The notes under the pieces are model-generated. The model was not told the DNA's origin. It did no database searches and was given only the letters and a program-made list of their open reading frames with translations. This document shows, one piece after another, positions 4,300 to 62,274 of a stretch of DNA of 64,000 bases (positions are counted from its first letter, which is position 1; each line of letters starts with the position of its first letter). The DNA is from an uncultured Chloroflexia bacterium (GTDB taxonomy: Bacteria; Chloroflexota; Limnocylindria; Limnocylindrales; CSP1-4). The stretch spans positions 48,775-112,774 of the forward strand of contig CAWJQZ010000019.1 of assembly GCA_963844945.1 (NCBI GenBank). Reading direction: 5' to 3'. A program made the position numbers and the translations under genes.

Positions 4300-4985
4300 T
4301 GCGTCGAGGTACGTGCCGTGGTCCGGGTCGAGCGTCCGGCGTCGCACGTCGTCGTCGACCCACGCGAGGTGGTCGTCGACGCGGAGGACTCCGCCGACGC
4401 CCTGCGCGACCGCGACGATCGTCTCGGCGAGCGACCGGCGCTCCAGCGTCCCTGCGAGTCGCACGACGCCGTCACGGACCTCGACCTCGAGGACCCCGGG
4501 CTCCGGCGCGACCGAGGTCTTGGCCGCGATCTCGGACGCGACCGCGGCGGCGAGGTCGGCGTCGGACCGCGTGAAGACGCGGACGAGGTCCGCGCGGGTG
4601 ACGATCCCGACGAGCCTCCCGTCCTCCACGACGGGGAGTCGGTTGATGCCGCGCCGGACCATCGTGTCGGCGGCGTCGCGGACGCTGGCGTCCGGCCCGA
4701 TCGTCACCGCCGGCGACGTCATCGCCTCGCCCGCGGTCCGCGCGGTCGCCTTCGGCGAAGGCCTGCGCCCGAGGAGGCGCGCGATGGCGCCCCCGCCCGT
4801 CGCGGCGCCGGCGTCGTGCGCGAGGAAGTCGGCCTCGGAGACGACGCCGAGCACCCAGCCGTCCTTCCCGACGACCGGGATCCCCGAGACCTTCCGCGAG
4901 ACGAGGAGCTGCGCGACCTCGCGGAGAGGCCGGTCCGGCGTGACGGAGATCACGTCGACGGTCATCACCTCGCGCACGCGCATCT
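4300..4985 (-). CDS. CBS-pair plus BON domain protein
   Basis: MRVREVMTVDVISVTPDRPLREVAQLLVSRKVSGIPVV and RRGINRLPVVEDGRLVGIVTRADLVRVF (two CBS motifs), then VRDGVVRLAGTLERRSLAETIV (BON-like). The 3-prime end is unclear because the frame runs into the methyltransferase. Confidence 0.55.
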
Positions 4986-22486: not shown

Positions 22487-22562
22487 GCGGGAGTAGCTCA
22501 GTCGGTAGAGCGTCAGCCTTCCAAGCTGAATGTCGCGGGTTCGAGACCCGTCTCCCGCTCCA
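22487..22562 (+). tRNA. tRNA-Gly (anticodon TCC), 76 nt with encoded CCA
   Basis: GCGGGAGTAGCTCAGTCGGTAGAGCGTCAGCCTTCCAAGCTGAATGTCGCGGGTTCGAGACCCGTCTCCCGCTCCA. Acceptor GCGGGAG/CTCCCGC, D-arm GCTCAGTCGGTAGAGC, anticodon loop CTTCCAA, T-arm GCGGGTTCGAGACCCGT. Confidence 0.93.
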
Positions 22563-22858
22563 GTTCCTCGGTTCCGTGGTCATGGCGACACTAAGCCTGC
22601 GATCACTGGACATCCGCACGGCTCGTTCCGTTCCGCTGAGCCGCCGAAGAGTGCCGCCACAACGCTCGCAGACACGCAGCCGCGCAGATTCTCGACCGTA
22701 TGGCGCCGTTGTGGCTTGCCTCCGCCCCGCTTACGGTGTCGACGCCGCCCGAACACTGAGCACTCCTCGCCGGTCGAAGCCTGAGCAACCCTGACGGTCT
22801 CGACTGGCACCCTCTCGCGATCGTCGTCAACGCCGGAACGACCGTCTACCGGGCGACC

Positions 22859-23728
22859 TTGGCAGCAGGCTGGACGGCAGCGCGGACGCGATGGTGCGCC
22901 GCGGCCGACTGGGCAGCCTCCATGCTCACCCTGGGCACCATGGTCCTCGCGTCGATCGTCATCGTGCTCGGCCCTGCGCCGGACCTCGAGGCGGCACGCT
23001 CCTTCGCGGTCGTCGTGCTGATCCTGGTCGGGGCCGCATGGCTCCTCCTCTCGCTGGTCTCTGCCCAGCGACGCCCGGCGGACGGCCGACTGCGGTCCCC
23101 GACGACGACCGGCACTGGCGGCCGAGCCTCGTCTGGCGCACGTTCGGGAGGCGAGCGGGAGGCATCGACGCGCGGCCCACACCCCGGCCGCCGGGACCGC
23201 GCCGAGCCACTGGCGAGACCGACCCGCACGACGGCGTCCCAGGAGGGTCTCGTGGAGTTGCTGACGTGGAGGCTCAGGGTATCGACACTGTGGATCTTCC
23301 TCGCTGTCGGCACGCTGGCCGCCTTCTTCGCTGTCGTTATGCCGGCGGACGTCCTGAGTGAGTACCTCGCGACCGGGCAACTCGAGGGCGAGGCGATGGA
23401 CGCCACGATGCTGGCCCTGATGGTCGGGCTGTTCGTCCTCCTGCCTCTGGCGATGGCCTTCCTCACGCTGGCGCTGAGGGATCCGGTCGACCGCTTGGCG
23501 AACGGCATCGTGGGTGCTCTCGCCGCTGTGATGTGGACGTGGGATCTGGCTGAGTCCGTGAGCAAGGAGCCCGCGATCAGCGGTGGGCCTGTCCTCACGG
23601 CGACCTTGATCCTTGCCGGGCTGCTGATCGTCTGGCACGCTTGGAAGTGGCCCAAGACGGCGGAGCAGGGCCTGCCCGGCCGGCGACCGGTGACCGGTCC
23701 CGACCTGGGAGCCGCCAAACCCGTGTAG
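22859..23728 (+). CDS. membrane protein ORF; probably two genes (short 2-TM ORF 22859-~23070 and a 4-TM protein from GTG 23252) separated by a duplicated leader element
   Basis: Continuous frame, but the middle R/G/S/T-rich stretch coincides with a 150-bp repeat that recurs upstream of the next gene. AGGAGG lies 5 nt upstream of GTG 23252. The downstream part (VELLTWRLRVSTLWIFLAVGTLAAFFAVV...) has 4 TM helices. Confidence 0.5.
   Translation: MAAGWTAARTRWCAAADWAASMLTLGTMVLASIVIVLGPAPDLEAARSFAVVVLILVGAAWLLLSLVSAQRRPADGRLRSPTTTGTGGRASSGARSGGEREASTRGPHPGRRDRAEPLARPTRTTASQEGLVELLTWRLRVSTLWIFLAVGTLAAFFAVVMPADVLSEYLATGQLEGEAMDATMLALMVGLFVLLPLAMAFLTLALRDPVDRLANGIVGALAAVMWTWDLAESVSKEPAISGGPVLTATLILAGLLIVWHAWKWPKTAEQGLPGRRPVTGPDLGAAKPV
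23075..23227 (+). promoter_or_regulatory. copy 1 of a duplicated ~150-nt structured leader ending 18 nt before the AGGAGG-GTG start at 23252
   Basis: CCGGCGGACGGCCGACTGCGGTCCCCGACGACG...GAGCGGGAGGCATCGACGCGCGGCCCACACCCCGGCCGCCGGGACCGCGCCGAGCCACTGGCGAGACCGACCCGC. About 85% identical to copy 2 outside a variable ~30-nt middle. Confidence 0.45.
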
Positions 23729-23851
23729 GCGGCAGGTCTCCAGCTGGAAGACGACAAGCAGGACGGCTCCGGCCTGCCCCGAGACGGGCGACCGGGGCCG
23801 TTTCGTGCGGGGCAGCGGGCCAGCGCGGCTCGGCGAGGCGTCCGGCGGACG

Positions 23852-23993
23852 GCTGACTGCCGTCCCCGACGACGCACGGCACTGGCGACGCGTGGCCCGA
23901 CGGCCGAGCATGACGGGCGAGCGGGAGGCTCTGACGCGCGGCCCACGTTCCGGCCGCCGGGACCGCGCCGAGCCACTGGCGAGACCGACCCGC
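23852..23993 (+). promoter_or_regulatory. copy 2 of the duplicated leader, ending 8 nt before the GGAGGG RBS of methyltransferase 24016
   Basis: Contains perfect hairpin GGACGGC-TGACT-GCCGTCC and the conserved 3-prime block GAGCGGGAGGCTCTGACGCGCGGCCCACGTTCCGGCCGCCGGGACCGCGCCGAGCCACTGGCGAGACCGACCCGC. Confidence 0.45.
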
Positions 23994-24015
23994 TCGCGCA
24001 CGGAGGGCCGCGCGA

Positions 24016-24698
24016 TGGGACTGCGCAGATCGTTCTGGCTGCCGTTCTTCGGGGTGCCGCGCGGTCCGCTCGGGTGGGTCGGCGCTCGGCTGCTGCCGAA
24101 GGTCGCCCGGCCCCTCTATGCGATGGTGGCCGGGCAGCTGGACCTCCGGCCCGACGATTCGTTGCTTGAGGTTGGCTGCGGCTCCGCGGGGTTGCTCGTC
24201 GAGCACGCCTCCCACGTCCGCCACGTCGCCGGCCTGGACGCATCGGAGATCCAGGTGGACATGGCCAGGAAGCGGCTGGCCGACCGCATCTCCGCTGGAA
24301 CGGCCGAGATCGTCCTTGGCAATGCGATGGCGCTGCCGTGGGAGGACGGCCACTTCAGCGTCGTCGCCTCGGTCAACTGCCTGAAGTTCGTCCCCGATCC
24401 CCCGAAAGCCCTGAGCGAGATGCATCGGGTCCTCGGTCCCGACGGACGGCTGGTGCTCACGATCGACAAGCAGGCCGACAAGTGGGGCCGGTCGGGCAAG
24501 ATCGACGCGTTCGGCCAGTGGCAGTGGAGCGTGGATGACATGCGGCGGATGGTGGAGGAGGCCGGCTTCGCCGACGTCTCCGTGGCCGATATGCCGACCA
24601 AGCTGGGCCTTCAGTTCGTCCGTGGCGCGAAGCGCGCGGCGATCCCCGCCGCGGAGGTCGCCGAGACGCCAGAGCTCGTCGGGGCGGCGCCACGGTGA
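24016..24698 (+). CDS. class I SAM-dependent methyltransferase (UbiE/COQ5-like)
   Basis: Intact. LEVGCGSAGLLVEHASHVRHVAGLDASEIQVDMARKRL...MALPWEDGHFSVVASVNCLKFVPDPPKALSEMHRVLGPDGRLVL. GGAGGG RBS 8 nt upstream of ATG 24016. Confidence 0.8.
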
Positions 24699-25201
24699 GC
24701 ACGCACCTGACCGGGGACCGCCGCGCCGGCACGCCGCGGCCGCCCTCCCACCGGATGATCCGTGCCTTCGGAGTCGTCCACCTCGCCGGCCATCGGCTCA
24801 CGGGCGGGAGGCTCGGGCTTTCGCGTCCGACTCCCGCCCGCTGGGGTCACATGTGCCTCACCACGACCGGGCGCAGAACAGGCAAGAAGCGGCACGCGAT
24901 GCTCGGCTACTTCGATGACGGCCGGAACCTGGTCGCGCTGGCCGTGAACGCATGGGCGGATGCCGAGCCCGCCTGGTGGCTCAACCTCCAGGCGCATCCC
25001 GACGCTATCGTCGAGCTCAAGGACGGATCTCGGCAGGTCAGGGCGCGCGCGGCGCAGGGCGAGGAGCGGGCGCGCCTCTGGGCGCGCTGGCGCGAGCTGG
25101 GAGAGCGGTCGGGCGTGGCCGAGATCGCCGACATGGATGCCTACACCGCCCAGTTGTCGCGCGAACCGGCGGTCGTGGTGCTGGAGCCGCAGCCCGGCTG
25201 A
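24695..25201 (+). CDS. deazaflavin(F420)-dependent nitroreductase-family protein (Ddn/DUF385-like)
   Basis: Intact. LTTTGRRTGKKRHAMLGYFDDGRNLVALAVNAWADAEPAWWLNLQAHPDAIVELKDG matches the PNPOx-like F420H2-dependent reductase fold. Confidence 0.7.
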   Translation: MSTHLTGDRRAGTPRPPSHRMIRAFGVVHLAGHRLTGGRLGLSRPTPARWGHMCLTTTGRRTGKKRHAMLGYFDDGRNLVALAVNAWADAEPAWWLNLQAHPDAIVELKDGSRQVRARAAQGEERARLWARWRELGERSGVAEIADMDAYTAQLSREPAVVVLEPQPG

Positions 25202-25249: not shown

Positions 25250-26071
25250 ATGAAGCCGTCGACGGATCCGGTCGGCATGTACGTGGAGGAGTCGGGGGCT
25301 CCGGGCTCTCCAGCCATCGTGTTCCTTCACGGCGCAGGCCAGAGCTGCCGGGAGTGGCGCGGGCATATGGCGGGCCTCCCAGCCTTCCACTGTCTGGCTC
25401 CGGACCTGCCCGGCCACGGTCGGAGCAACCATCTGCCGCTGCCTTCGCAGGAGCGCCTGGTCGATGACATCGCCGTGCTCATCGAGAGGCGGGTGCCCGC
25501 GGGACGCGCACACGTCGTGGGCATCTCGTGGGGTGCCAATCTCGCCCAGGTCCTCATCCGGCGGCACCCCGACCGCGTCGACCGCGTGGTCTCGGACGGC
25601 ACACTGATCGCCTGGCCGGGCGGCCTGGTGAGGACTCTGCTGCTCGGGTTCTACGCACTGATGGTGCCGTTCCTGCACACCCGGCCGGTGCGGGCGCTGT
25701 ATCGGGACATCGTGGACGCAGCGGACCTTCGCCTCGCGTCTCGCACGGCGTACTGGCGCGCCGTGCGGCAGTGCATGGAAGGCTTCGACGCCGTGACCGA
25801 GGCCCCATGCCCGACCCTGCTCGTCGCCGGGGAGAGGGAGGGCTACGTGCGGCCGCCCGACGCCGCGCTGGCCGCGGTCATGCCCCATGCCGAGGCCTGG
25901 TACGCACCCGGCCTGGATCACTGCTGGCAACGCAGGGCGCCGGACCTCCACATCCGGATGGTCGAGGCCTGGTGCACCGGCCAGGTGCTGCCACCCGGAC
26001 TCCGGCCCGAGCTGACGCCGAAGACCGAAGCGGTGGAGCGGATGCGACGGAACATCCCGGCAGGCGCCTGA
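25250..26071 (+). CDS. alpha/beta hydrolase
   Basis: Intact. IVFLHGAGQS...VVGISWGANLAQ (GxSxG nucleophile elbow). Confidence 0.75.
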   Translation: MKPSTDPVGMYVEESGAPGSPAIVFLHGAGQSCREWRGHMAGLPAFHCLAPDLPGHGRSNHLPLPSQERLVDDIAVLIERRVPAGRAHVVGISWGANLAQVLIRRHPDRVDRVVSDGTLIAWPGGLVRTLLLGFYALMVPFLHTRPVRALYRDIVDAADLRLASRTAYWRAVRQCMEGFDAVTEAPCPTLLVAGEREGYVRPPDAALAAVMPHAEAWYAPGLDHCWQRRAPDLHIRMVEAWCTGQVLPPGLRPELTPKTEAVERMRRNIPAGA

Positions 26072-26086
26072 CAGGAGGTCCGACCC

Positions 26087-26827
26087 ATGCGACTCGCCCC
26101 ATCGCTGCATCGGCTCGGCGAGGAGATCGTCAGCTGCTACCTCCTCGAGGAAGCCGGAGCGGTCACGATCATCGACGCGGGCGTGCCCGCCTACTACTCC
26201 GACCTGACGACCGAGCTCGCGGCCATGGGCCGGACGATCGAGGACGTCCAGGCGCTCGTGCTGACCCATGGCCACGACGACCATCGCGGGTTCGCCGAGC
26301 GGCTGCGAGTGGAGCACGACGTGCCCGTGAGCATCCACGTGCTCGACCGGGCGCTGGCACAGGGCGAGGTCGGGAACCCGAGCGCCGGCATGGGCGAGCG
26401 CAAGCTCGGTTCCCTGCTGCGCTACATGCTGTGGCTCATCCGTCACGGCGCGATGCGAACCAAGGCTCTGACGGCGGTCGGCACCTTCGACCCAGGCACG
26501 ACGCTCGACGTGCCGGGCGCGCTGCATGTCATCCACACACCAGGACACACGCCCGGCAGCGTCACGTTGTACGCGCCGGGACACGACGCCGTCTTCGTCG
26601 GCGATGCGTTGGCGACGGACGCCGTGATCAGCGAGCGGCACGGTCCGCAGATCTGTCCCTTCGCTGCCGACCCCGACGTGGCCCTTGCATCCCTGGCGAA
26701 CATCGAGCGGCTCGAGGCGCACTGGCTGCTGCCTGGACACGGCAGCCCCTGGACCGACGGCGTCGCGGCCGCCGTGGCCGCAGCGCGTGAGGTCGGGGTC
26801 GGACACTTGGCCCGCGCGAAACGCTGA
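26087..26827 (+). CDS. MBL-fold metallo-hydrolase
   Basis: Intact. LVLTHGHDDHRG (HxHxDH) and HTPGHTPGSV. Confidence 0.8.
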   Translation: MRLAPSLHRLGEEIVSCYLLEEAGAVTIIDAGVPAYYSDLTTELAAMGRTIEDVQALVLTHGHDDHRGFAERLRVEHDVPVSIHVLDRALAQGEVGNPSAGMGERKLGSLLRYMLWLIRHGAMRTKALTAVGTFDPGTTLDVPGALHVIHTPGHTPGSVTLYAPGHDAVFVGDALATDAVISERHGPQICPFAADPDVALASLANIERLEAHWLLPGHGSPWTDGVAAAVAAAREVGVGHLARAKR

Positions 26828-27207: not shown

Positions 27208-27358
27208 AGACACCAAAACTGGACGCCCTCCGCTCGCGTCCCCACGCTCGCCGTCACAGTGCTTCGGCGCCCCGGCCTTCCAAGCTGAATGTCGCGGGTT
27301 CGAGACCCGTCTCCCGCTCCAGTTCCCCGTTTCGTGCTCAGCACGACACGATAACTGG
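27208..27358 (+). repeat. att-like repeat A: degenerate P-arm, tRNA-Gly 3-prime half (27275-27321) and downstream flank with arm motif
   Basis: GCCTTCCAAGCTGAATGTCGCGGGTTCGAGACCCGTCTCCCGCTCCA is identical to tRNA-Gly positions 30-76, followed by GTTCCCCGTTTCGTGCTCAGCACGACACGATAACTGG. Confidence 0.85.
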
Positions 27359-29121: not shown

Positions 29122-29276
29122 GACGACACGATAACTGGACACGTTTCGCTCGGGCCCCTGAGCACGATGCTGTTACGCACAGCCGCCGAGGCCTGCCAAG
29201 CTGAATGTCGCGGGTTCGAGACCCGTCTCCCGCTCCACTTCCTCGGTTCGTGCTCAGCACGACACGATAACTGGAC
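29122..29276 (+). repeat. att-like repeat B (best preserved): arm motif, tRNA 3-prime half (29191-29237) and arm motif
   Basis: GACGACACGATAACTGGACACGTTTCGCTCGGGCCCCTGAGCACGATGCTGTTACGC...CCAAGCTGAATGTCGCGGGTTCGAGACCCGTCTCCCGCTCCA CTTCCTCGGTTCGTGCTCAGCACGACACGATAACTGGAC. Confidence 0.85.
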
Positions 29277-30680: not shown

Positions 30681-30830
30681 CGACACGACAACTGGACACG
30701 TTACGCTCGGGCCTCTGAGCACGGTGCTACAGCGCTCAGGCGTCCCGGCCTTCCAAGCTGAATGTCGCGGGTTCGAGACCCGTCTCCCGCTCCACTTCCC
30801 CGGTTTCGCGCTCAGCAGGACACGCAGCCT
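30678..30830 (+). repeat. att-like repeat C (tRNA fragment 30748-30794)
   Basis: GACGACACGACAACTGGACACGTTACGCTCGGGCCTCTGAGCACG...GGCCTTCCAAGCTGAATGTCGCGGGTTCGAGACCCGTCTCCCGCTCCACTTCCCCGGTTTCGCGCTCAGCAGGACACGCAGCC. Confidence 0.85.
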
Positions 30831-31033
30831 GATATCCGAGCGATGGCGGCAGGCTGCTTCGGCCGTCTGCCCGGGACCGCCTCGCCATGGCAGGTCCCTC
30901 CATTGCTGGCCAACGCGGCGGTCCGCCCCGGAACCCGGCGCAAGTCGGGTTGCCCCGCGACGAACCACCTTCCGGTAACGCCGCGCCTGGCCGAGCCGCC
31001 GGAGCCGTGCGAGTGGCTGCGGAGCGCATGACG

Positions 31034-33695: not shown

Positions 33696-33847
33696 CGACG
33701 ACACGATGACTGGACACGTTTCGCCCGGGCCCCTGAGCACGATGCTGTTGCGCCTAGGCGCCGGTGGCCTTCCAGACTGGATGTCGCGGGTTCGAGACCC
33801 GTCTCCGGCTCCACTTCCCCGGTTCGTGCTCAGCACGACACGCAGCC
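33696..33847 (+). repeat. att-like repeat D (tRNA fragment 33767-33823, 4 substitutions)
   Basis: GACGACACGATGACTGGACACGTTTCGCCCGGGCCCCTGAGCACGATGCTGTTGCGC...GCCTTCCAGACTGGATGTCGCGGGTTCGAGACCCGTCTCCGGCTCCACTTCCCCGGTTCGTGCTCAGCACGACACGCAGCC. Confidence 0.8.
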
Positions 33848-34307
33848 AACAGCGGTCGGACGCCCGCGCGGCTGGTCTTGCCCCTCTCAGCCGGGCCGTG
33901 TCGCTGCCGCAACGCTTCGGGACACTGAGCCTCGGAGTCGAAGCGACCGCCGGTCGTGAGCGCAGTCGTGTGTACGGCACCGCTGAGGCCGCGAACGACG
34001 ACGCCGGTGCGGGAGTCGTCGGTCCGTGGAGCGGCGACACGGGCTGCGATCCCGCCGGAGCCTGGTTGCGCCGACTCGGCGCGCCTCAAGGGGCATGCGC
34101 GTGGGTCAACCGGGCTGGCACCAACGCCCGCGCCGTTGGGCGAGGCCGTACTCATCTTCTTCTCATCGAGCGCTCACCCCACGACGACCCCGCGGCCATA
34201 CGGTCACCGGGATAGACGCGGGAGGCGTTGACGCACGGTCCCCGACCTGGTCGCCTTGGATCGTGCCGAGCCAATGGCGAGACCGCCCCGCACCGGGAGG
34301 TACACAG

Positions 34308-34772
34308 ATGCGCTCGACTCGCAAGTTCGCCTCGGTGGCCAGCACCTTCGCCGCGGCCGCCCTCCTCGGGGCGACGGTCCTGACCCTCGCTCCACCCGCG
34401 CTGGCATCGACGCCACGGTACGGCAACCTCCACGTCGTGAAGGAGTGCACGGCCTACACCGGTGCCGCCGGCGGCTACTGCACCGTCACGTCTTCGAACG
34501 TCCCCGCGATCAAGGTCGGCTCGAAGATCGTCTACGGGCAGGCGGCCGGCGCGACCGCGCTCAACAGCGACATCGTCCTCACGTCCGGGGCCGGCAACAG
34601 CGCGATCGGCCACTGCTACCTCGGCTTCGCGGATGGCCTGGGGCTCTGCACGATCGCGGGCGGGACCGGCTCATTCGCCGGGTTCGAGGCGAGCGTCACC
34701 GTGACCGCGAGCTCCACCGTCACGAAGGGCTGGAACTGGGACGGCACGTACAGCTTCGACAAGATCAACTGA
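34308..34772 (+). CDS. small secreted Cys-containing protein (hypothetical)
   Basis: Signal peptide MRSTRKFASVASTFAAAALLGATVLTLAPPALA. Four Cys residues in the mature part. Gly/Ala/Thr-rich. Confidence 0.55.
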   Translation: MRSTRKFASVASTFAAAALLGATVLTLAPPALASTPRYGNLHVVKECTAYTGAAGGYCTVTSSNVPAIKVGSKIVYGQAAGATALNSDIVLTSGAGNSAIGHCYLGFADGLGLCTIAGGTGSFAGFEASVTVTASSTVTKGWNWDGTYSFDKIN

Positions 34773-37180: not shown

Positions 37181-37337
37181 CACCAAAGCCGGACGAGGTT
37201 CGCTCCCGTTCCCACGCTCGTCGCCGCACTGCTCACCGCCGCTGGCCTTCCAAGCTGAATGTCGCGGGTTCGAGACCCGTCTCCCGCTCCACTTCGCTGG
37301 TTCGTGCGTGGGTCGACCCGGCAGGTTCGTGCTAGCC
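37181..37337 (+). repeat. att-like repeat E (tRNA fragment 37245-37291); the 5-prime arm variant is shared with repeat A
   Basis: CACCAAAGCCGGACGAGG...CCCACGCTCGTCGCCGCACTGCTCACCGCCGCTGGCCTTCCAAGCTGAATGTCGCGGGTTCGAGACCCGTCTCCCGCTCCACTTCGCTGGTTCGTGC. Confidence 0.8.
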
Positions 37338-40506: not shown

Positions 40507-40622
40507 CACGACACGATAACTGGACACGTTACGCTCAGGCCCCTGAGCACGGTGCCACAACGCTCAGATGTCCCAGCCTTCCAGGCTGGATGTCGCGGGT
40601 CCGAGACCCATCTCCCGCTCCA
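40507..40622 (+). repeat. att-like repeat F (tRNA fragment 40574-40622, decayed T-arm; no 3-prime flank)
   Basis: CACGACACGATAACTGGACACGTTACGCTCAGGCCCCTGAGCACGGTGCCACAACGCTCAGATGTCCCAGCCTTCCAGGCTGGATGTCGCGGGTCCGAGACCCATCTCCCGCTCCA. Confidence 0.8.
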
Positions 40623-40646
40623 GCTTCTCCGACGGCGGCGCCGGCC

Positions 40647-43016
40647 TCAGGGGGCCGGCGCCGCCGTCGGTCGGTCCGCGACGTCCGCGAGCACCGCGCG
40701 TCCAAGCCGGCCGGACAGGGCGGCCGCGAACGTCGCTGTCATGTGGCCTCCGTCGCGATAGACGAGCAGGTCGCCGAGAACCGCCGGGCAGGGGCTCGTC
40801 GGGCAGACCCATGGCGTCGGGTCGATGAACCCCGCCCCGCCCGCGGCGGCGGCTCCCCGCTCCACGGCGAGCCAGCCGGGGTCCAGGGCGTCCTCCACGG
40901 GGGTCGCGCAGTCGAGGACGCTCGTCGGGTGTGCCGAGAGGCAGACCGGCGGGTCCACCGCGGAGCGCGGCGTGTCGGCGAGGAGGATCACCCGTCCGGC
41001 AGACGCCCGCAGACGGTCGAGCGTCCGTGCCATCCCCGCCTCCCATGCGGCCGTCCGCGCGTCGCCCGCCACGACGGTCCCGTTGGCGTCGACGGTTGCG
41101 AAGCCGCGCGTTCCCGCGACCACCACGATGTCCGGGTGCTCCTGCGCGAGGCGTTCGAGCGCCCACGTCCGCCACTCGTCGCACGCGGGCACCACGCTCT
41201 TGAGCGTCGGGTTCCACGCCCGGATGTCGGCGGGCGAGCAGGCCGACATCGTGAGGTCGAGCAGGCGCCAGCCCTTGTCGGTGGCCAGGCCCTCCATCGT
41301 CGGGAACCAGGCGAGCGCGTGGCTGTCGCCGAAGAGCACGATCCGCGTCTTCCCGTTCGGGTCGCCGTAGATGCAGGAGCCCCTGGGCCGGCCCCCGTCC
41401 TGCTGGACGTGGCACCGGTCGAGGTACGCGCCCGGGAGGTCGCCGCGGGCGTCGGCGAGCGCGGGCGACAGGTCCGCCGGCACGGGGCCGTCCGGCGTCT
41501 GCCGGGTGGGGGCGAGCGGGAGACCGGTGGACGCGGTGGAGCCGGCCGATGCCGGGCTCGCCGAGGCGGCGTCCGGCGAGGTGGCCGCCGAGAGGGTGCC
41601 GGCGGTCGCCGTGCCGGCAGAGGCTCCGGTGCCCGCGGTCCCCGTGCGCGATGGGGTACCCGACCGCGGGGTCCTGCTCGGCCCCGGCGCGCCGCTCGGC
41701 CCCGTCGCGCCGCCCGGGGACGCGCCCGCAGGGTCGCTCGCGACCGGGCCCAGGAACGCGTCGAGCTGCTGCGCGGCCTCGGCGGCCCCGATCGTCCGTC
41801 CCTGGCCGTGCAGGCCGGCCGCGGCCGAGACGCCGACCGTGACCGACAGCATGACCACGGCGACCGTGAGCCCACCGGCCATCGCGAGGTTCCTCCGCGG
41901 CAGGGTCCCCACGACGCGCCCCCGCCGGATCGGCTCCTCCACCCACCGCTGCGTCGCGGCCGCGAGGGCGATCGAGATCCCGATGAGGACGAGGCGCTCC
42001 CACAGCGGCAGCGGGACGCCCAGCGCGATGATGGGGATCACGAGGACCGGCCAGTGCCACAGGTAGAGCGAGTAGGAGATGCGGCCGAAGAACCGCGGGA
42101 TCGCGGTCCCCAGGCACCGCGCCGGTCCGAACCGCGTCGCCCGCGACCCGGCCACGATGACGAGCGCAGCTCCCACGGTGGGCAGGAGCGCCGCCATGCC
42201 GGGGAACGGGGTCGCCTCGCCGATCGCGACGGCGGCGATCGCGATGAGGGCGATGCCGGTCCACCCCGCCACCGCGGCCGCCGGGCCCGGGATCCGCTCG
42301 AGTCGCGTCCCCGCGACGGCGAGCAGAGCGCCGAGGCCGAGCTCCCAGGCACGCGTCGGCAGCGAGAAGAAGGCCCAGGGCTGGTTGACGGACGTCAGCC
42401 AGAGGGCGAGGACGAACGAGACCACGCCGATCGCCGCGACGATCGCCCCGACCCGTCGGCCCGGGCGGAGCGCGCCGCGCGCGACGACGAAGACGATGAC
42501 CGGCCAGAGCAGGTAGAACTGCTCCTCGACGCCGAGGGACCAGAAGTGGAGGATCGGCGAAGGCGTCTGGCTGGCCGCGAAGTAGTCGGTCGCCTGCGCC
42601 GCGAAGCCCACGTTGGAGACGAACAGCGCGGCCGCGGCCGCGTCTGTCGCGGCACCGGGCACGAGGAGCGGCGGAAGGAGGACGACGGAGGCCGCGACGG
42701 TCACGAGGAGGACGACGGCGGCCGCCGGCAGGATGCGGCGCGCTCGTCGCGCGTAGAACGATGGGAGGGAGAGCGTCCCCGTCTCGCCGATCTCGCGGAG
42801 CATGAGGCCGGTGATCAGGAACCCCGAGATCACGAAGAAGACGTCGACGCCCACGAATCCGCCAGTGAACCCGGAGATCGATGCGTGGAAGAGGACCACG
42901 AGCAGGACCGCGATCGCCCGCAGCCCCTCGATGTCCGCGCGGCGTCCGCCGGCCGGGGTGACGGGCCGCCCGACACGGTGCGCCATCGGCGCGCGCCGAT
43001 CGATCGGGTGCGCCAT
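40647..43016 (-). CDS. acyltransferase-3 family membrane protein with C-terminal SGNH hydrolase domain (OatA-like O-acetyltransferase)
   Basis: Intact. IEGLRAIAVLLVVLFHA, FFVISGFLIT, about 10 TM helices, Ser/Thr/Gly/Pro linker, C-terminal IVLFGDSHA (SGNH block I). Confidence 0.8.
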   Translation of the reverse strand: MAHPIDRRAPMAHRVGRPVTPAGGRRADIEGLRAIAVLLVVLFHASISGFTGGFVGVDVFFVISGFLITGLMLREIGETGTLSLPSFYARRARRILPAAAVVLLVTVAASVVLLPPLLVPGAATDAAAAALFVSNVGFAAQATDYFAASQTPSPILHFWSLGVEEQFYLLWPVIVFVVARGALRPGRRVGAIVAAIGVVSFVLALWLTSVNQPWAFFSLPTRAWELGLGALLAVAGTRLERIPGPAAAVAGWTGIALIAIAAVAIGEATPFPGMAALLPTVGAALVIVAGSRATRFGPARCLGTAIPRFFGRISYSLYLWHWPVLVIPIIALGVPLPLWERLVLIGISIALAAATQRWVEEPIRRGRVVGTLPRRNLAMAGGLTVAVVMLSVTVGVSAAAGLHGQGRTIGAAEAAQQLDAFLGPVASDPAGASPGGATGPSGAPGPSRTPRSGTPSRTGTAGTGASAGTATAGTLSAATSPDAASASPASAGSTASTGLPLAPTRQTPDGPVPADLSPALADARGDLPGAYLDRCHVQQDGGRPRGSCIYGDPNGKTRIVLFGDSHALAWFPTMEGLATDKGWRLLDLTMSACSPADIRAWNPTLKSVVPACDEWRTWALERLAQEHPDIVVVAGTRGFATVDANGTVVAGDARTAAWEAGMARTLDRLRASAGRVILLADTPRSAVDPPVCLSAHPTSVLDCATPVEDALDPGWLAVERGAAAAGGAGFIDPTPWVCPTSPCPAVLGDLLVYRDGGHMTATFAAALSGRLGRAVLADVADRPTAAPAP

Positions 43017-45888: not shown

Positions 45889-46013
45889 TGGTCTGCTCGA
45901 TCTGCGGGACGGAGAACCGACCGGGACGGAGGTTCTGCGGAGGCTGCGCGGCCCCGCTCGCGCTTGTCTGCCCGTCCTGCGGCGTCGCCAACGAGCCGGA
46001 GATGCGCTGCTAG
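45889..46013 (+). pseudogene. double zinc-ribbon fragment (N-terminal module typical of actinobacterial adenylyl-cyclase/ATPase regulators)
   Basis: VVCSICGTENRPGRRFCGGCAAPLALVCPSCGVANEPEMRC then stop. Two CxxC...CxxC pairs in 40 aa. Confidence 0.45.
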
Positions 46014-46453
46014 GCCGCCCGGGCGGTGGCTTCCCCGACGAGGACGGCCCCGGGCGGGGCGACCGCCTGGAGCCGGGCCGCCGTGTTGACGAGATCCCCG
46101 GCCACCATCCCCTGGCCGGTCGCGCCGACGGTCACCGCCGCTTCACCGGTCAGGACCCTGGCGCGGGCGGCGAACGTGGGGCCGAGCCTCCGGACCGCAG
46201 CGACGAGCTCGAGGCCGGCCCGCACCGCCCGCTCGGCGTCGTCCTCGTGGGCGACCGGGGCACCCCAGACCGCCATGACCGCGTCGCCGATGAACTTCTC
46301 GACGCTCCCGCCGTGGCGGGCGATCACCTCGCCGGCGAGCTCGAAGTAGCGGGAGAGGATGTCGCGGACCTCCTCCGCGTCGCGCTCCTCGGCGAAGGGC
46401 GTGAACCCGACGAGGTCCGCGAAGAGCACCGAGACGTGCCGCCGCTCGGCCAC
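46010..46453 (-). pseudogene. class III adenylyl/guanylyl cyclase catalytic domain, truncated at its C-terminus
   Basis: RHVSVLFADLVGFTPFAE...VEKFIGDAVMAVWGAP...GDLVNTAARLQ. Ends GEATARAA-stop, about 40 aa short of a full CHD. Its stop overlaps the zinc-ribbon stop at CTAG 46010-46013. Confidence 0.6.
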
Positions 46454-50398: not shown

Positions 50399-50497
50399 CG
50401 AGCAGCGCGGCGTGGCCGCAGGCCGCCCGCGAGGGCCGGGACGGCCACGCGCGCGGTCGACAGGAGCGCTTTCGGGGTCACCGACGACGCCTGCCTC

Positions 50498-50560
50498 GCT
50501 GGATGGCTCGTGTTCGAGACCCTCTCCCGCTCCATCTCCTCCGGTCCGTTCACGACCGAT
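50498..50560 (+). repeat. terminal degenerate tRNA-Gly 3-prime-end copy G (T-arm plus acceptor only), candidate distal island boundary
   Basis: GCTGGATGGCTCGTGTTCGAGACCCTCTCCCGCTCCATCTCCTCCGGTCCGTTCACGACC aligns to GCTGAATGTCGCGGGTTCGAGACCCGTCTCCCGCTCCACTTCCCCGGTTCGTGCTCAGCACGAC. Confidence 0.55.
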
Positions 50561-53648: not shown

Positions 53649-55534
<1,886 letters not shown>

Positions 55535-61969: not shown

Positions 61970-62274
61970 GTCTCCCCCCGGAGGCGTGTCGTGCGATGTC
62001 AGCCGATCAGGCGTCCCGGGCAGGAGAGGAGTTCACGCATGGCCACCGCCCCGGCCGGTTCGACGTGGGACGCGTCGGAACGTAGTGTGGAGTGTCGGTC
62101 GCGATGGCGGCCTTGTCAACTGCTGCGGAACAAATGACCCGCCACTTGTCAAGGGCCTATCGGGGGTAATCGGGTCCTGCAGAATGTACTAGAGCCGGGA
62201 CGACGTGACGAACCCCCGGGACGGCCGTCCCGGGGGTTCGTCAGGCGAGGTCGGTGGCCCTGCCGCCGTCCGCG

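Follow-up and report, generated by a model that had tools for sequence, protein, structure and literature searches.

Riboswitch aptamers of the c-di-GMP-II-GAG class precede neighbouring genes in an uncultured Chloroflexia bacterium, two of them behind a conserved, probably promoter-side block

The DNA analysed here, referred to as the window, is a 64,000-nt stretch of contig CAWJQZ010000019.1 (assembly GCA_963844945.1, positions 48,775 to 112,774, forward strand) from an uncultured Chloroflexia bacterium. Between positions 22859 and 24698 it carries two consecutive genes, encoding a multi-pass membrane protein and an S-adenosylmethionine (SAM)-dependent methyltransferase, each preceded by a copy of a two-block repeat. 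A sequence-only reading, made without database searches, had described the repeats as a duplicated structured leader of about 150 nt and proposed a riboswitch or attenuator, with a scar of local duplication as the alternative. The results below assign the 3' block to a riboswitch class and suggest a different role for the 5' block.

Repeats and genes at the locus

A repeat search of the window returned two pairs of direct repeats where the sequence-only reading had placed them: a 5' block at 23072-23120 and 23839-23887 (49 nt, 90% identity) and a 3' block at 23150-23230 and 23916-23996 (81 nt, 91% identity), with start-to-start distances of 767 and 766 nt, respectively. Self-blastn merged the blocks into a single match of 23072-23230 to 23839-23996 (82.5% over 160 nt, E=3e-38). 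The middle segment of about 28 nt is approximately 45% identical between copies 1 and 2, as judged by eye from the alignment, and the three-part pattern of conserved, variable and conserved sequence across the two copies is real. The 28-nt core of the 5' block is found at exactly two sites in the 64 kb at three or fewer mismatches, with none expected from 100 shuffles. A third, more diverged copy that had gone unnoticed consists of the 3' block only, at 34212-34297, and is approximately 80% identical to copies 1 and 2. The features of the three copies and the genes next to them are as follows, "-35-like" and "-10-like" denoting putative promoter elements and SD a Shine-Dalgarno sequence.

22859..23075, + strand: gene for a small membrane protein with two transmembrane segments (2-TM)
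23072..23120, + strand: 5' block of copy 1, putative promoter-upstream DNA with a -35-like CTGGCG (23115-23120) and an imperfect inverted repeat (23080-23098)
23121..23148, + strand: variable middle of copy 1, comprising an 18-nt spacer (23121-23138), a -10-like CACGTT (23139-23144) and 4 nt
23149..23233, + strand: aptamer of copy 1, RF03169
23234..23251, + strand: putative expression platform of copy 1, GCGTCCC (23234-23240) followed by the SD AGGAGGG (23241-23247)
23252..23728, + strand: multi-pass membrane protein of 158 aa behind copy 1, with a weak match to DUF6326 (Pfam PF19851, E=0.038)
23839..23887, + strand: 5' block of copy 2, with a perfect inverted repeat (23847-23865) and a -35-like CTGGCG (23882-23887)
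23888..23914, + strand: variable middle of copy 2, comprising an 18-nt spacer (23888-23905), a -10-like GAGCAT (23906-23911) and 3 nt
23915..23999, + strand: aptamer of copy 2, RF03169
24000..24014, + strand: putative expression platform of copy 2, with the SD GGAGGG (24002-24007) and GGGCCGCGCG (24005-24014)
24015..24698, + strand: SAM-dependent methyltransferase of 227 aa behind copy 2 (Pfam Methyltransf_11, 1e-20)
34199..34204, + strand: -10-like TACGGT before copy 3, at offset -21 from GGGA, a hexamer also present in many family members
34212..34297, + strand: aptamer of copy 3, RF03169, without a 5' block, the 3' strand of its helix P1 overlapping the SD GGGAGG (34295-34300)
34308..34772, + strand: 154-aa protein behind copy 3, with an N-terminal signal-peptide-like segment and no Pfam family

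The SD of the copy 1 gene is followed by GTG at 23252, as had been read from the sequence, and that of the copy 2 gene by ATG at 24015-24017, one position before the start of 24016 given in that reading. Copy 1 lies inside an open reading frame (ORF) of 289 aa at 22859-23728 (G+C content at third codon positions 0.85), which had been suspected of being two genes. This is indeed the case, as 24 database homologues, most of them 158 aa long, match only its C-terminal ~55%, and the N-terminal part is a separate 2-TM gene. Homologues of the latter were found by tblastn in L075, L028, L006 and L125 (labels of this type denote the metagenome or metagenome-assembled genome (MAG) loci collected in this analysis), where they end in "...AQRRPA(S/T)A" and a stop. 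The stop that homologues have after "...AQRRPAxA" is missing from the window gene, so that its frame passes through the putative promoter and the aptamer and joins the next gene in frame.

Aptamer class, fold and family

The whole window was scanned against Rfam at gathering thresholds, that of family RF03169 (c-di-GMP-II-GAG) being 40 bits. This family was matched at all three sites over model positions 1-86 of 86, with 67.8 bits for copy 1 (E=2e-11), 76.6 bits for copy 2 (E=1e-13) and 74.5 bits for copy 3. At each site RF03169 was the best-scoring member of clan CL00127, lower-scoring clan matches being dropped by cmscan. These scores identify the 3' block (~85 nt) as a c-di-GMP-II-GAG riboswitch aptamer, the variant-specific nucleotides being judged indirectly, through the best-scoring clan model and not position by position. 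A permissive Rfam scan of 22700-24200 gave no other family of note beside RF03169. In the cmscan alignments each window copy has 2-6 non-canonical pairs, mostly in the outer part of P1.

Related aptamers were collected by scanning a genome collection with a conserved aptamer 18-mer, which gave 118 loci, mostly from Chloroflexota MAGs with some from Actinomycetota. A covariance model of our own, R1, built on eight aptamers, finds approximately 130 aptamers in these 118 loci, and scores copies 1 and 2 at 86.4 and 96.4 bits. Among 106 aligned aptamers, 81.7% of pair cells are standard pairs, versus 30-51% when the partners are slid by 1-3 columns, and both-sided changes occur in 16 of 22 pairs, a result equalled by none of 500 shuffles; since the alignment was fitted to the model, these values are biased towards structure. 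On this alignment P1, a 3-bp helix and the hairpin stem are present and are backed by compensatory change across members, the outer six pairs of P1 being only ~55% paired. For a pseudoknot, the hairpin loop (CGGnCGCC) is complementary to the 3' GGCGAGACCG in all three window copies, with 78-99.8% pairing over the 106 sequences; the columns are nearly invariant and the 3' strand lies within the scan pattern, so that these figures carry no covariation evidence for the pseudoknot.

The aptamers keep a close position before genes, the distance from aptamer to start codon being 10-25 nt in 96 of 116 cases. Membrane-protein homologues are preceded by an aptamer, 17-20 nt before the start, in metagenome contigs L001, L006 and L007, and according to model R1 also in L108 and, more weakly (40 bits), in L002; in L007 the segment between aptamer and SD is identical to that of window copy 1. 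An orthologue of the methyltransferase (71% identity, 227 aa) lies behind an aptamer in the Chloroflexia MAG locus L011 and another in L125, and a 50%-identical homologue of the copy 3 gene lies behind an aptamer in L111. The proposal that the element before both starts is a riboswitch is thus borne out, with RF03169 as its class: the covariance models match both copies, aptamers are found in other genomes before orthologues of the membrane-protein, methyltransferase and secreted-protein genes, compensatory changes are seen in the helices, and the apparent single ORF is two genes. The riboswitch reading therefore stands.

Several loci contain arrays in which each aptamer stands in front of its own gene, with five aptamers per 8-kb block in L125, four in L080 and three each in L023, L062, L071, L100 and L118. 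In both L006 and L007, which carry the membrane-protein orthologue, a second aptamer is found on the neighbouring gene. Because such arrays are common in the family, two consecutive riboswitch-led genes are typical of it and not a special feature of the window. One aptamer in the GAG-type array of the Chloroflexia locus L118 (2430-2515) had its best score with c-di-GMP-II-GCG, at 47.6 bits against a threshold of 47.9, indicating that both variants can be neighbours.

The 5' block and a putative promoter

The 5' block lies outside the RF03169 model and is absent from copy 3. It matched no family when 22700-24200 and five array loci were scanned permissively against Rfam, the best hit being IMPDH RNA at E=4.1. 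A metagenome scan with GTCCNCGACGACNNNCGGCNCTGGCG returned 21 loci. In 11 of them CGGC(T/A)CTGGCG is followed by an unrelated spacer of 18 +/-1 nt, a (C/G)A(C/T)C(A/G)T hexamer and then an aptamer, the pattern upstream of the aptamers being GTCCNCGACGACNNNCGGC(T/A)CTGGCG; the aptamer of one of these loci, L134, is clipped by the contig end and was recognised only by eye. The genes behind the 11 blocks differ, encoding signal-peptide proteins and, as judged by eye, proteins with SRPBCC-like or SnoaL-like N-termini. The other 10 loci, with CGGCGCTGGCG, are chance matches within coding DNA and have no aptamer.

Across the family, hexamers of the form NANNNT are concentrated at -18, -17 and -16 from the invariant GGGA of P1 (62 of 92, versus about 2 per position further upstream), and both CACGTT of copy 1, at -18, and GAGCAT of copy 2, at -17, lie on this peak. 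The slot holds two unrelated types of hexamer, TACGGT-like and GA(C/G/T)AAT-like, which have nothing in common but A2 and T6, the two positions that characterise a -10 box. Eighteen nt upstream of the hexamer the family shows C-T-n-G, with T as the most informative base and a few members having TTGACA or TTGCCA, and at this -35 position both window copies have CTGGCG. The spacing from C-T-n-G-n-n to the -10 hexamer is constant at 18 nt (17 if counted from TGGCGn) in the window, in L001, L002, L006 and L007, and in the 11 metagenome loci.

A related module, ...GCACCGGGCGTCCGGGGGCCGTTCGCCTCTnGCC... followed by the same spacer and -10 hexamer, is widespread and lies ~46 nt before many aptamers. 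It was located with a 15-mer, as a loose 12-mer was too noisy in GC-rich DNA. The module is also found directly before genes without any aptamer, and in one such case the hexamer TAGCGT is followed 7 nt later by ATG, an arrangement that resembles a leaderless mRNA. Two forms can be told apart: GGGCGTCC-GGGGCCGT(T/C)CGC-CTCTnGCC, at a fixed 17-18 nt from the -10 hexamer, and the window form with ~11 extra bp, GCGTCCGG..CCGTCC(G/C)CGACGACnnnCGGC(T/A)CTGGCG. The promoter-side module was found in Chloroflexota-like and other genomes, with and without an aptamer.

A conserved upstream module of ~50-75 nt (GCTCCGCACCGGGCGCTCCGCTC..GGATGGGACGCGCACCGGGCGTCCGGGGGCCGTTCGCCTCTnGCC) occurs up to five times per 8 kb in L028, L125, L080, L023, L118, L070 and others, before genes that have the riboswitch as well as before genes that lack it, the sites in L028 being on the minus strand at 4397, 5102, 5528, 6206 and 7647. 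It contains GCACCGGGCG twice, ~38 nt apart, and no Rfam family matches it.

Taken as a promoter, the arrangement is most likely one in which the 5' block is promoter-side DNA and not part of the aptamer, and the variable middle would consist of the promoter spacer and the -10 box. The transcript probably begins where the aptamer does, or close to it, with a predicted start near 23150 for copy 1. A transcript beginning inside the outer P1 would fit the family data, because the outer six P1 pairs are so often unpaired. Of the ~150-nt structured leader described in the sequence-only reading, the 3' 85 nt are thus retained as an RNA element, and the 5' part is not. Two other promoter types noticed by eye were rejected: an ECF (extracytoplasmic function)-type GGAAC-N18-CGTT in L006, the pattern of which fails in other loci, and a sigma-54-like GGCAC..TTGC, which has the wrong spacing.

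Alternative explanations of the repeats

An unlikely but not negligible alternative is that the repeats are the scar of a recent local duplication or gene conversion, with no function implied for the 5' block. The copies are direct repeats 766-767 nt apart, and compared with GGCGTCCGGGCCGTCCGCGACGAC both window blocks carry a common insertion of ~14 nt, which is present in no other instance and creates the hairpin discussed below. The two window blocks are therefore each other's closest relatives, and the insertion shows that one derives from the other through duplication or gene conversion. L007 is ~93% identical to the window in nucleotide sequence from the aptamer core onwards (97% in protein) and diverges sharply just 5' of the core; beyond the -35 region the upstream DNA of copy 1 is unlike that of L007, which points to a breakpoint of recombination at the aptamer's 5' boundary. 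After a neutral recent duplication, however, identity should be uniform, whereas it is 90% in the block, ~45% in the middle segment and 91% for the aptamer. Each aptamer core is also closer to relatives in other genomes (0.93-0.96) than to its neighbour (0.905; family mean 0.82), and the block minus its insertion is found at the same spacing before different genes in 11 unrelated contigs. The duplication scar proposed earlier as an alternative thus holds in part for the 5' block and does not account for the element as a whole.

Less probable still is a single structured leader, transcribed over all ~150 nt, in which the 5' block would be an RNA domain, for instance a hairpin or a decoy strand, acting jointly with the aptamer. 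In copy 2 (23847-23865) the hairpin GGACGGC-TGACT-GCCGTCC pairs without a mismatch, and the 5' block of this copy folds better than shuffled sequences (z=-2.58, with 1 of 200 shuffles as good). In addition, the sequence of the aptamer's pseudoknot strand, CACUGGCG, is repeated in the 5' block, where it could compete for the hairpin loop, and the Chloroflexi-type module has GGGACGC, complementary to a GCGUCCC that stands before the SD in ~40% of members. This GCGTCC(C) was counted between aptamer and SD in 39-42 of 95 members, copy 1 among them, versus 7 of 95 for a control segment. In copy 1, however, the hairpin (23080-23098) contains an internal G.G mismatch, and folding of the block is no stronger than that of shuffled sequences (z=+0.84). 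The 11 other instances of the block all lack the hairpin, as does the orthologous locus L007; it is confined, among the instances compared, to the two window copies and is unsupported as a conserved structure. The inverted repeat of the module was rejected as an RNA structure, as it shows no covariation and is 63.9% paired over 25 copies, a value matched by 61 of 500 shuffles. The sharply placed -10-like hexamer between block and aptamer, a spacer whose length is kept and whose sequence is not, the module directly before genes that have no aptamer, and the lack of an Rfam match for the block all speak further against a structured leader.

That the repeats encode an Arg/Pro-rich peptide common to the N-termini of the two proteins is extremely improbable: ORFs 22859-23728 and 23805-24698 do both traverse them, the 3' blocks are in the same frame with the 766-nt spacing equal to the frame offset of both ORFs, and tblastn finds "REALTRGPHPGRRDRAEPLARPTR" in dozens of loci, but these matches coincide with aptamer coordinates in every locus regardless of the gene behind, the membrane-protein homologues (most of them 158 aa) begin at the GTG after the repeat, the 227-aa methyltransferase orthologue has the same MGLRRSFW start, the helices covary, and stop-free frames are common by chance at ~72% G+C.

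Expression platform and proposed mechanism

The distance from the end of the aptamer to the SD is 3-8 nt in copies 1 and 2, and in copy 3 the two overlap. A terminator scan of 22500-24800 gave 0 sites, leaving no terminator-like site after the aptamers of copies 1 and 2, and an intrinsic terminator was on this basis excluded as the expression platform there. The proximity or overlap of the SD and the lack of a terminator make control at translation initiation most likely. In copy 2 the hairpin stem has CGCGCGGCCC (23935-23944) as its 5' strand, all 10 nt of which are complementary to GGGCCGCGCG (24005-24014), which spans the SD to the start codon; this pairing is used in the unconstrained minimum-energy fold. 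In the free ensemble of 93 members the SD region is predicted to pair mainly with the 3' strand of P1. When the aptamer helices were enforced, predicted SD accessibility rose from 0.38 to 0.49, with an increase in 70 of 93 members (p=4e-8), and a translational ON switch is weakly favoured by this model.

Overall, we consider it quite probable that these are GAG aptamers in 5' untranslated regions (UTRs), with a promoter-side 5' block and translational ON control. Each aptamer lies in the 5' UTR of its own gene, encoding the DUF6326-like membrane protein, the methyltransferase at the head of a probable operon, or the small secreted protein. The 5' block would supply the -35-like CTGGCG and ~40 nt of upstream DNA, followed by an 18-nt spacer of free sequence and the -10-like CACGTT or GAGCAT, and the transcript would begin close to where the aptamer does. 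In the ligand-free state, the 3' strand of P1 would pair with the ribosome-binding region, its place being taken in copy 2 by the 5' strand of the hairpin stem. Binding of the ligand would lock the aptamer helices and the pseudoknot, free the ribosome-binding site and turn translation on. In related genomes, many members of the riboswitch regulon have the same putative promoter-side block.

Several points weigh against this explanation. The start of transcription is predicted from sequence statistics alone; compared with the -10 hexamer TANNNT of a housekeeping (sigma-70-type) promoter, CACGTT and GAGCAT have A2 and T6 and begin with a base other than T, and such hexamers are weak by the measure of E. 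coli; and CTGGCG, the -35-like element, has little resemblance to TTGACA. A consensus promoter scan of 22500-24800 gave 0 sites, this being a weak test at ~72% G+C. The invariance of the 3' half of the aptamer is partly a matter of ascertainment, since the scan pattern sits there. As for polarity, the gain in SD accessibility is small and partly trivial, because enforcing the helices removes possible partners, and in copy 1 the change is reversed (0.51 to 0.39).

Genes behind the aptamers and genomic context

The methyltransferase gene probably leads an operon with the three genes that follow it.

24695-25201: F420H2-dependent quinone reductase family, downstream of the methyltransferase
25250-26071: alpha/beta hydrolase, same probable operon
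26087-26827: protein of metallo-beta-lactamase fold, same probable operon

Among 112 downstream genes of the family, Pfam matches were to SnoaL-like (9), SRPBCC / Polyketide_cyc2 (8), Kelch (5), alpha/beta hydrolase (4), collagen-like (3), methyltransferase (3) and DUF6326 (3) proteins, and 116 predicted downstream proteins fell into 76 sequence clusters. A regulon as scattered as this would be more in keeping with a sensor of a signalling molecule than with a switch for metabolic feedback.

The region that holds the riboswitch genes is lower in G+C content (0.69-0.72 versus 0.75-0.78) and begins at a tRNA-Gly(TCC) gene. Outside the riboswitches, the loci fetched for comparison that match the window best in nucleotide sequence come from "uncultured Chloroflexia" MAGs (78-91%), so that a Limnocylindria-like Chloroflexota genome is the probable source. 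The 3' ~47 nt of the tRNA gene, from the anticodon loop to CCA, recur in seven further copies over 28 kb, all on the + strand.

22487-22562, 27275-27349, 29191-29265, 30748-30831, + strand: tRNA-Gly(TCC) and partial repeats of it (sequence repeats)
33767-33842, 37245-37303, 40574-40629, 50489-50549, + strand: further partial tRNA-Gly repeats (sequence repeats)

Four of the repeat copies share ~75 nt upstream and ~40 nt downstream, with CTGAGCAC/GTGCTCAG in inverted orientation and ACGACACGATAACTGGAC as a direct repeat at the flanks. The repeats divide the lower-GC region into cargo segments of 1.5-10 kb, with riboswitch copies 1 and 2 in the first segment and copy 3 opening the segment after 33767-33842. 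The same tRNA-Gly repeat is present in the Chloroflexia MAG loci L040, L064, L044, L071 and L116. No integrase was found among Pfam matches to the ORFs in 22-52 kb. The arrangement looks like a tandem array of tRNA-targeted insertions. In two further Chloroflexia MAG loci, tRNA genes (L023 1761-1833 and L028 3784-3857) adjoin riboswitch and module arrays, as in the window.

At 46010-46450, on the minus strand, lies a gene for a stand-alone class III nucleotidyl cyclase domain protein of 146 aa (Guanylate_cyc, 8e-15), which has 85% nucleotide identity to L040 5937-6371. It may merit attention that a small nucleotide cyclase shares an island with orphan riboswitches of cyclic-dinucleotide type.

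Elsewhere in the window there is a perfect 38-nt palindrome at 62206-62243 and a 42-nt near-palindrome (90%) at 40629-40670. Strong swings of AT skew and GC skew occur at 60-63 kb, and the AT skew reaches 0.37 at 42-43 kb. ARAGORN called a 91-nt tRNA-Ala(CGC) at 54642-54732 on the minus strand that the Rfam tRNA model did not report at its gathering threshold; this gene may carry an insertion or be a false call.

Relation to known riboswitches and significance

The c-di-GMP-II riboswitch was reportedly described by Lee et al. in 2010, with crystal structures said to date from 2011, and among the members known, ON control of genes for motility and the cell surface is frequent. The window copies belong to the same clan and have the same fold as c-di-GMP-II (RF01786), a pseudoknotted aptamer of ~85 nt, and score best as the GAG variant. 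The genes of the family collected here (SnoaL-like, SRPBCC, Kelch, methyltransferase, DUF6326) differ from the clostridial pilus and adhesin genes of c-di-GMP-II. The c-di-GMP-II-GCG family (RF03170) is a sister variant in the same clan, the window copies being of the GAG type. With RF03169 itself they share the architecture of P1, internal loop and hairpin with a putative pseudoknot, the 5'-UTR position on the strand of the gene and the short distance to the SD, and the aptamer shows no differences. We could not find a description of a conserved promoter-side block at fixed spacing, which is an addition of this analysis.

The GAG and GCG variants are defined by changes at ligand-contacting nucleotides of c-di-GMP-II riboswitches. 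We know of no established ligand for the GAG variant, and no report of one was found in the literature searched, a set that did not include the defining paper of the variant; binding of c-di-GMP therefore cannot be assumed. The variant is not discussed by Weinberg et al. (2017, Nucleic Acids Research) or in a review of tandem riboswitches (PMC9481103). The latter are several aptamers of the same class close together on one mRNA (PMC9481103). In contrast, each window aptamer has its own gene, its own SD and, as predicted here, its own promoter, and copies 1 and 2 are 766 nt apart with a complete gene between them. With one gene per aptamer, the arrangement falls outside that definition of a tandem riboswitch; it is a repeated single-aptamer unit and not a cooperative tandem.

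The element in itself is a matter of routine annotation, since a standard Rfam scan names it. What is added is that the GAG variant is apparently an orphan whose regulated genes are mostly small proteins of unknown function, and that the window and the ~130 related aptamers supply a gene list for its regulon. Units of gene plus riboswitch are common to distant genomes, as in the case of the methyltransferase and its orthologue in a Chloroflexia MAG. The locus also illustrates that a conserved block beside a riboswitch need not be RNA, and the promoter-side block could serve to find the transcription factor of the regulon.

It is possible, and we put this forward tentatively, that the GAG riboswitch regulon is under a second, DNA-level control, in which the candidate module would be bound by a dedicated sigma or transcription factor that gates the genes alongside the orphan ligand. 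If this is true, many small genes (SnoaL-like, SRPBCC, DUF6326, methyltransferase and secreted) would be doubly gated, by the factor and by the riboswitch ligand, and these doubly gated genes would ride in cargo segments bounded by partial tRNA-Gly repeats.

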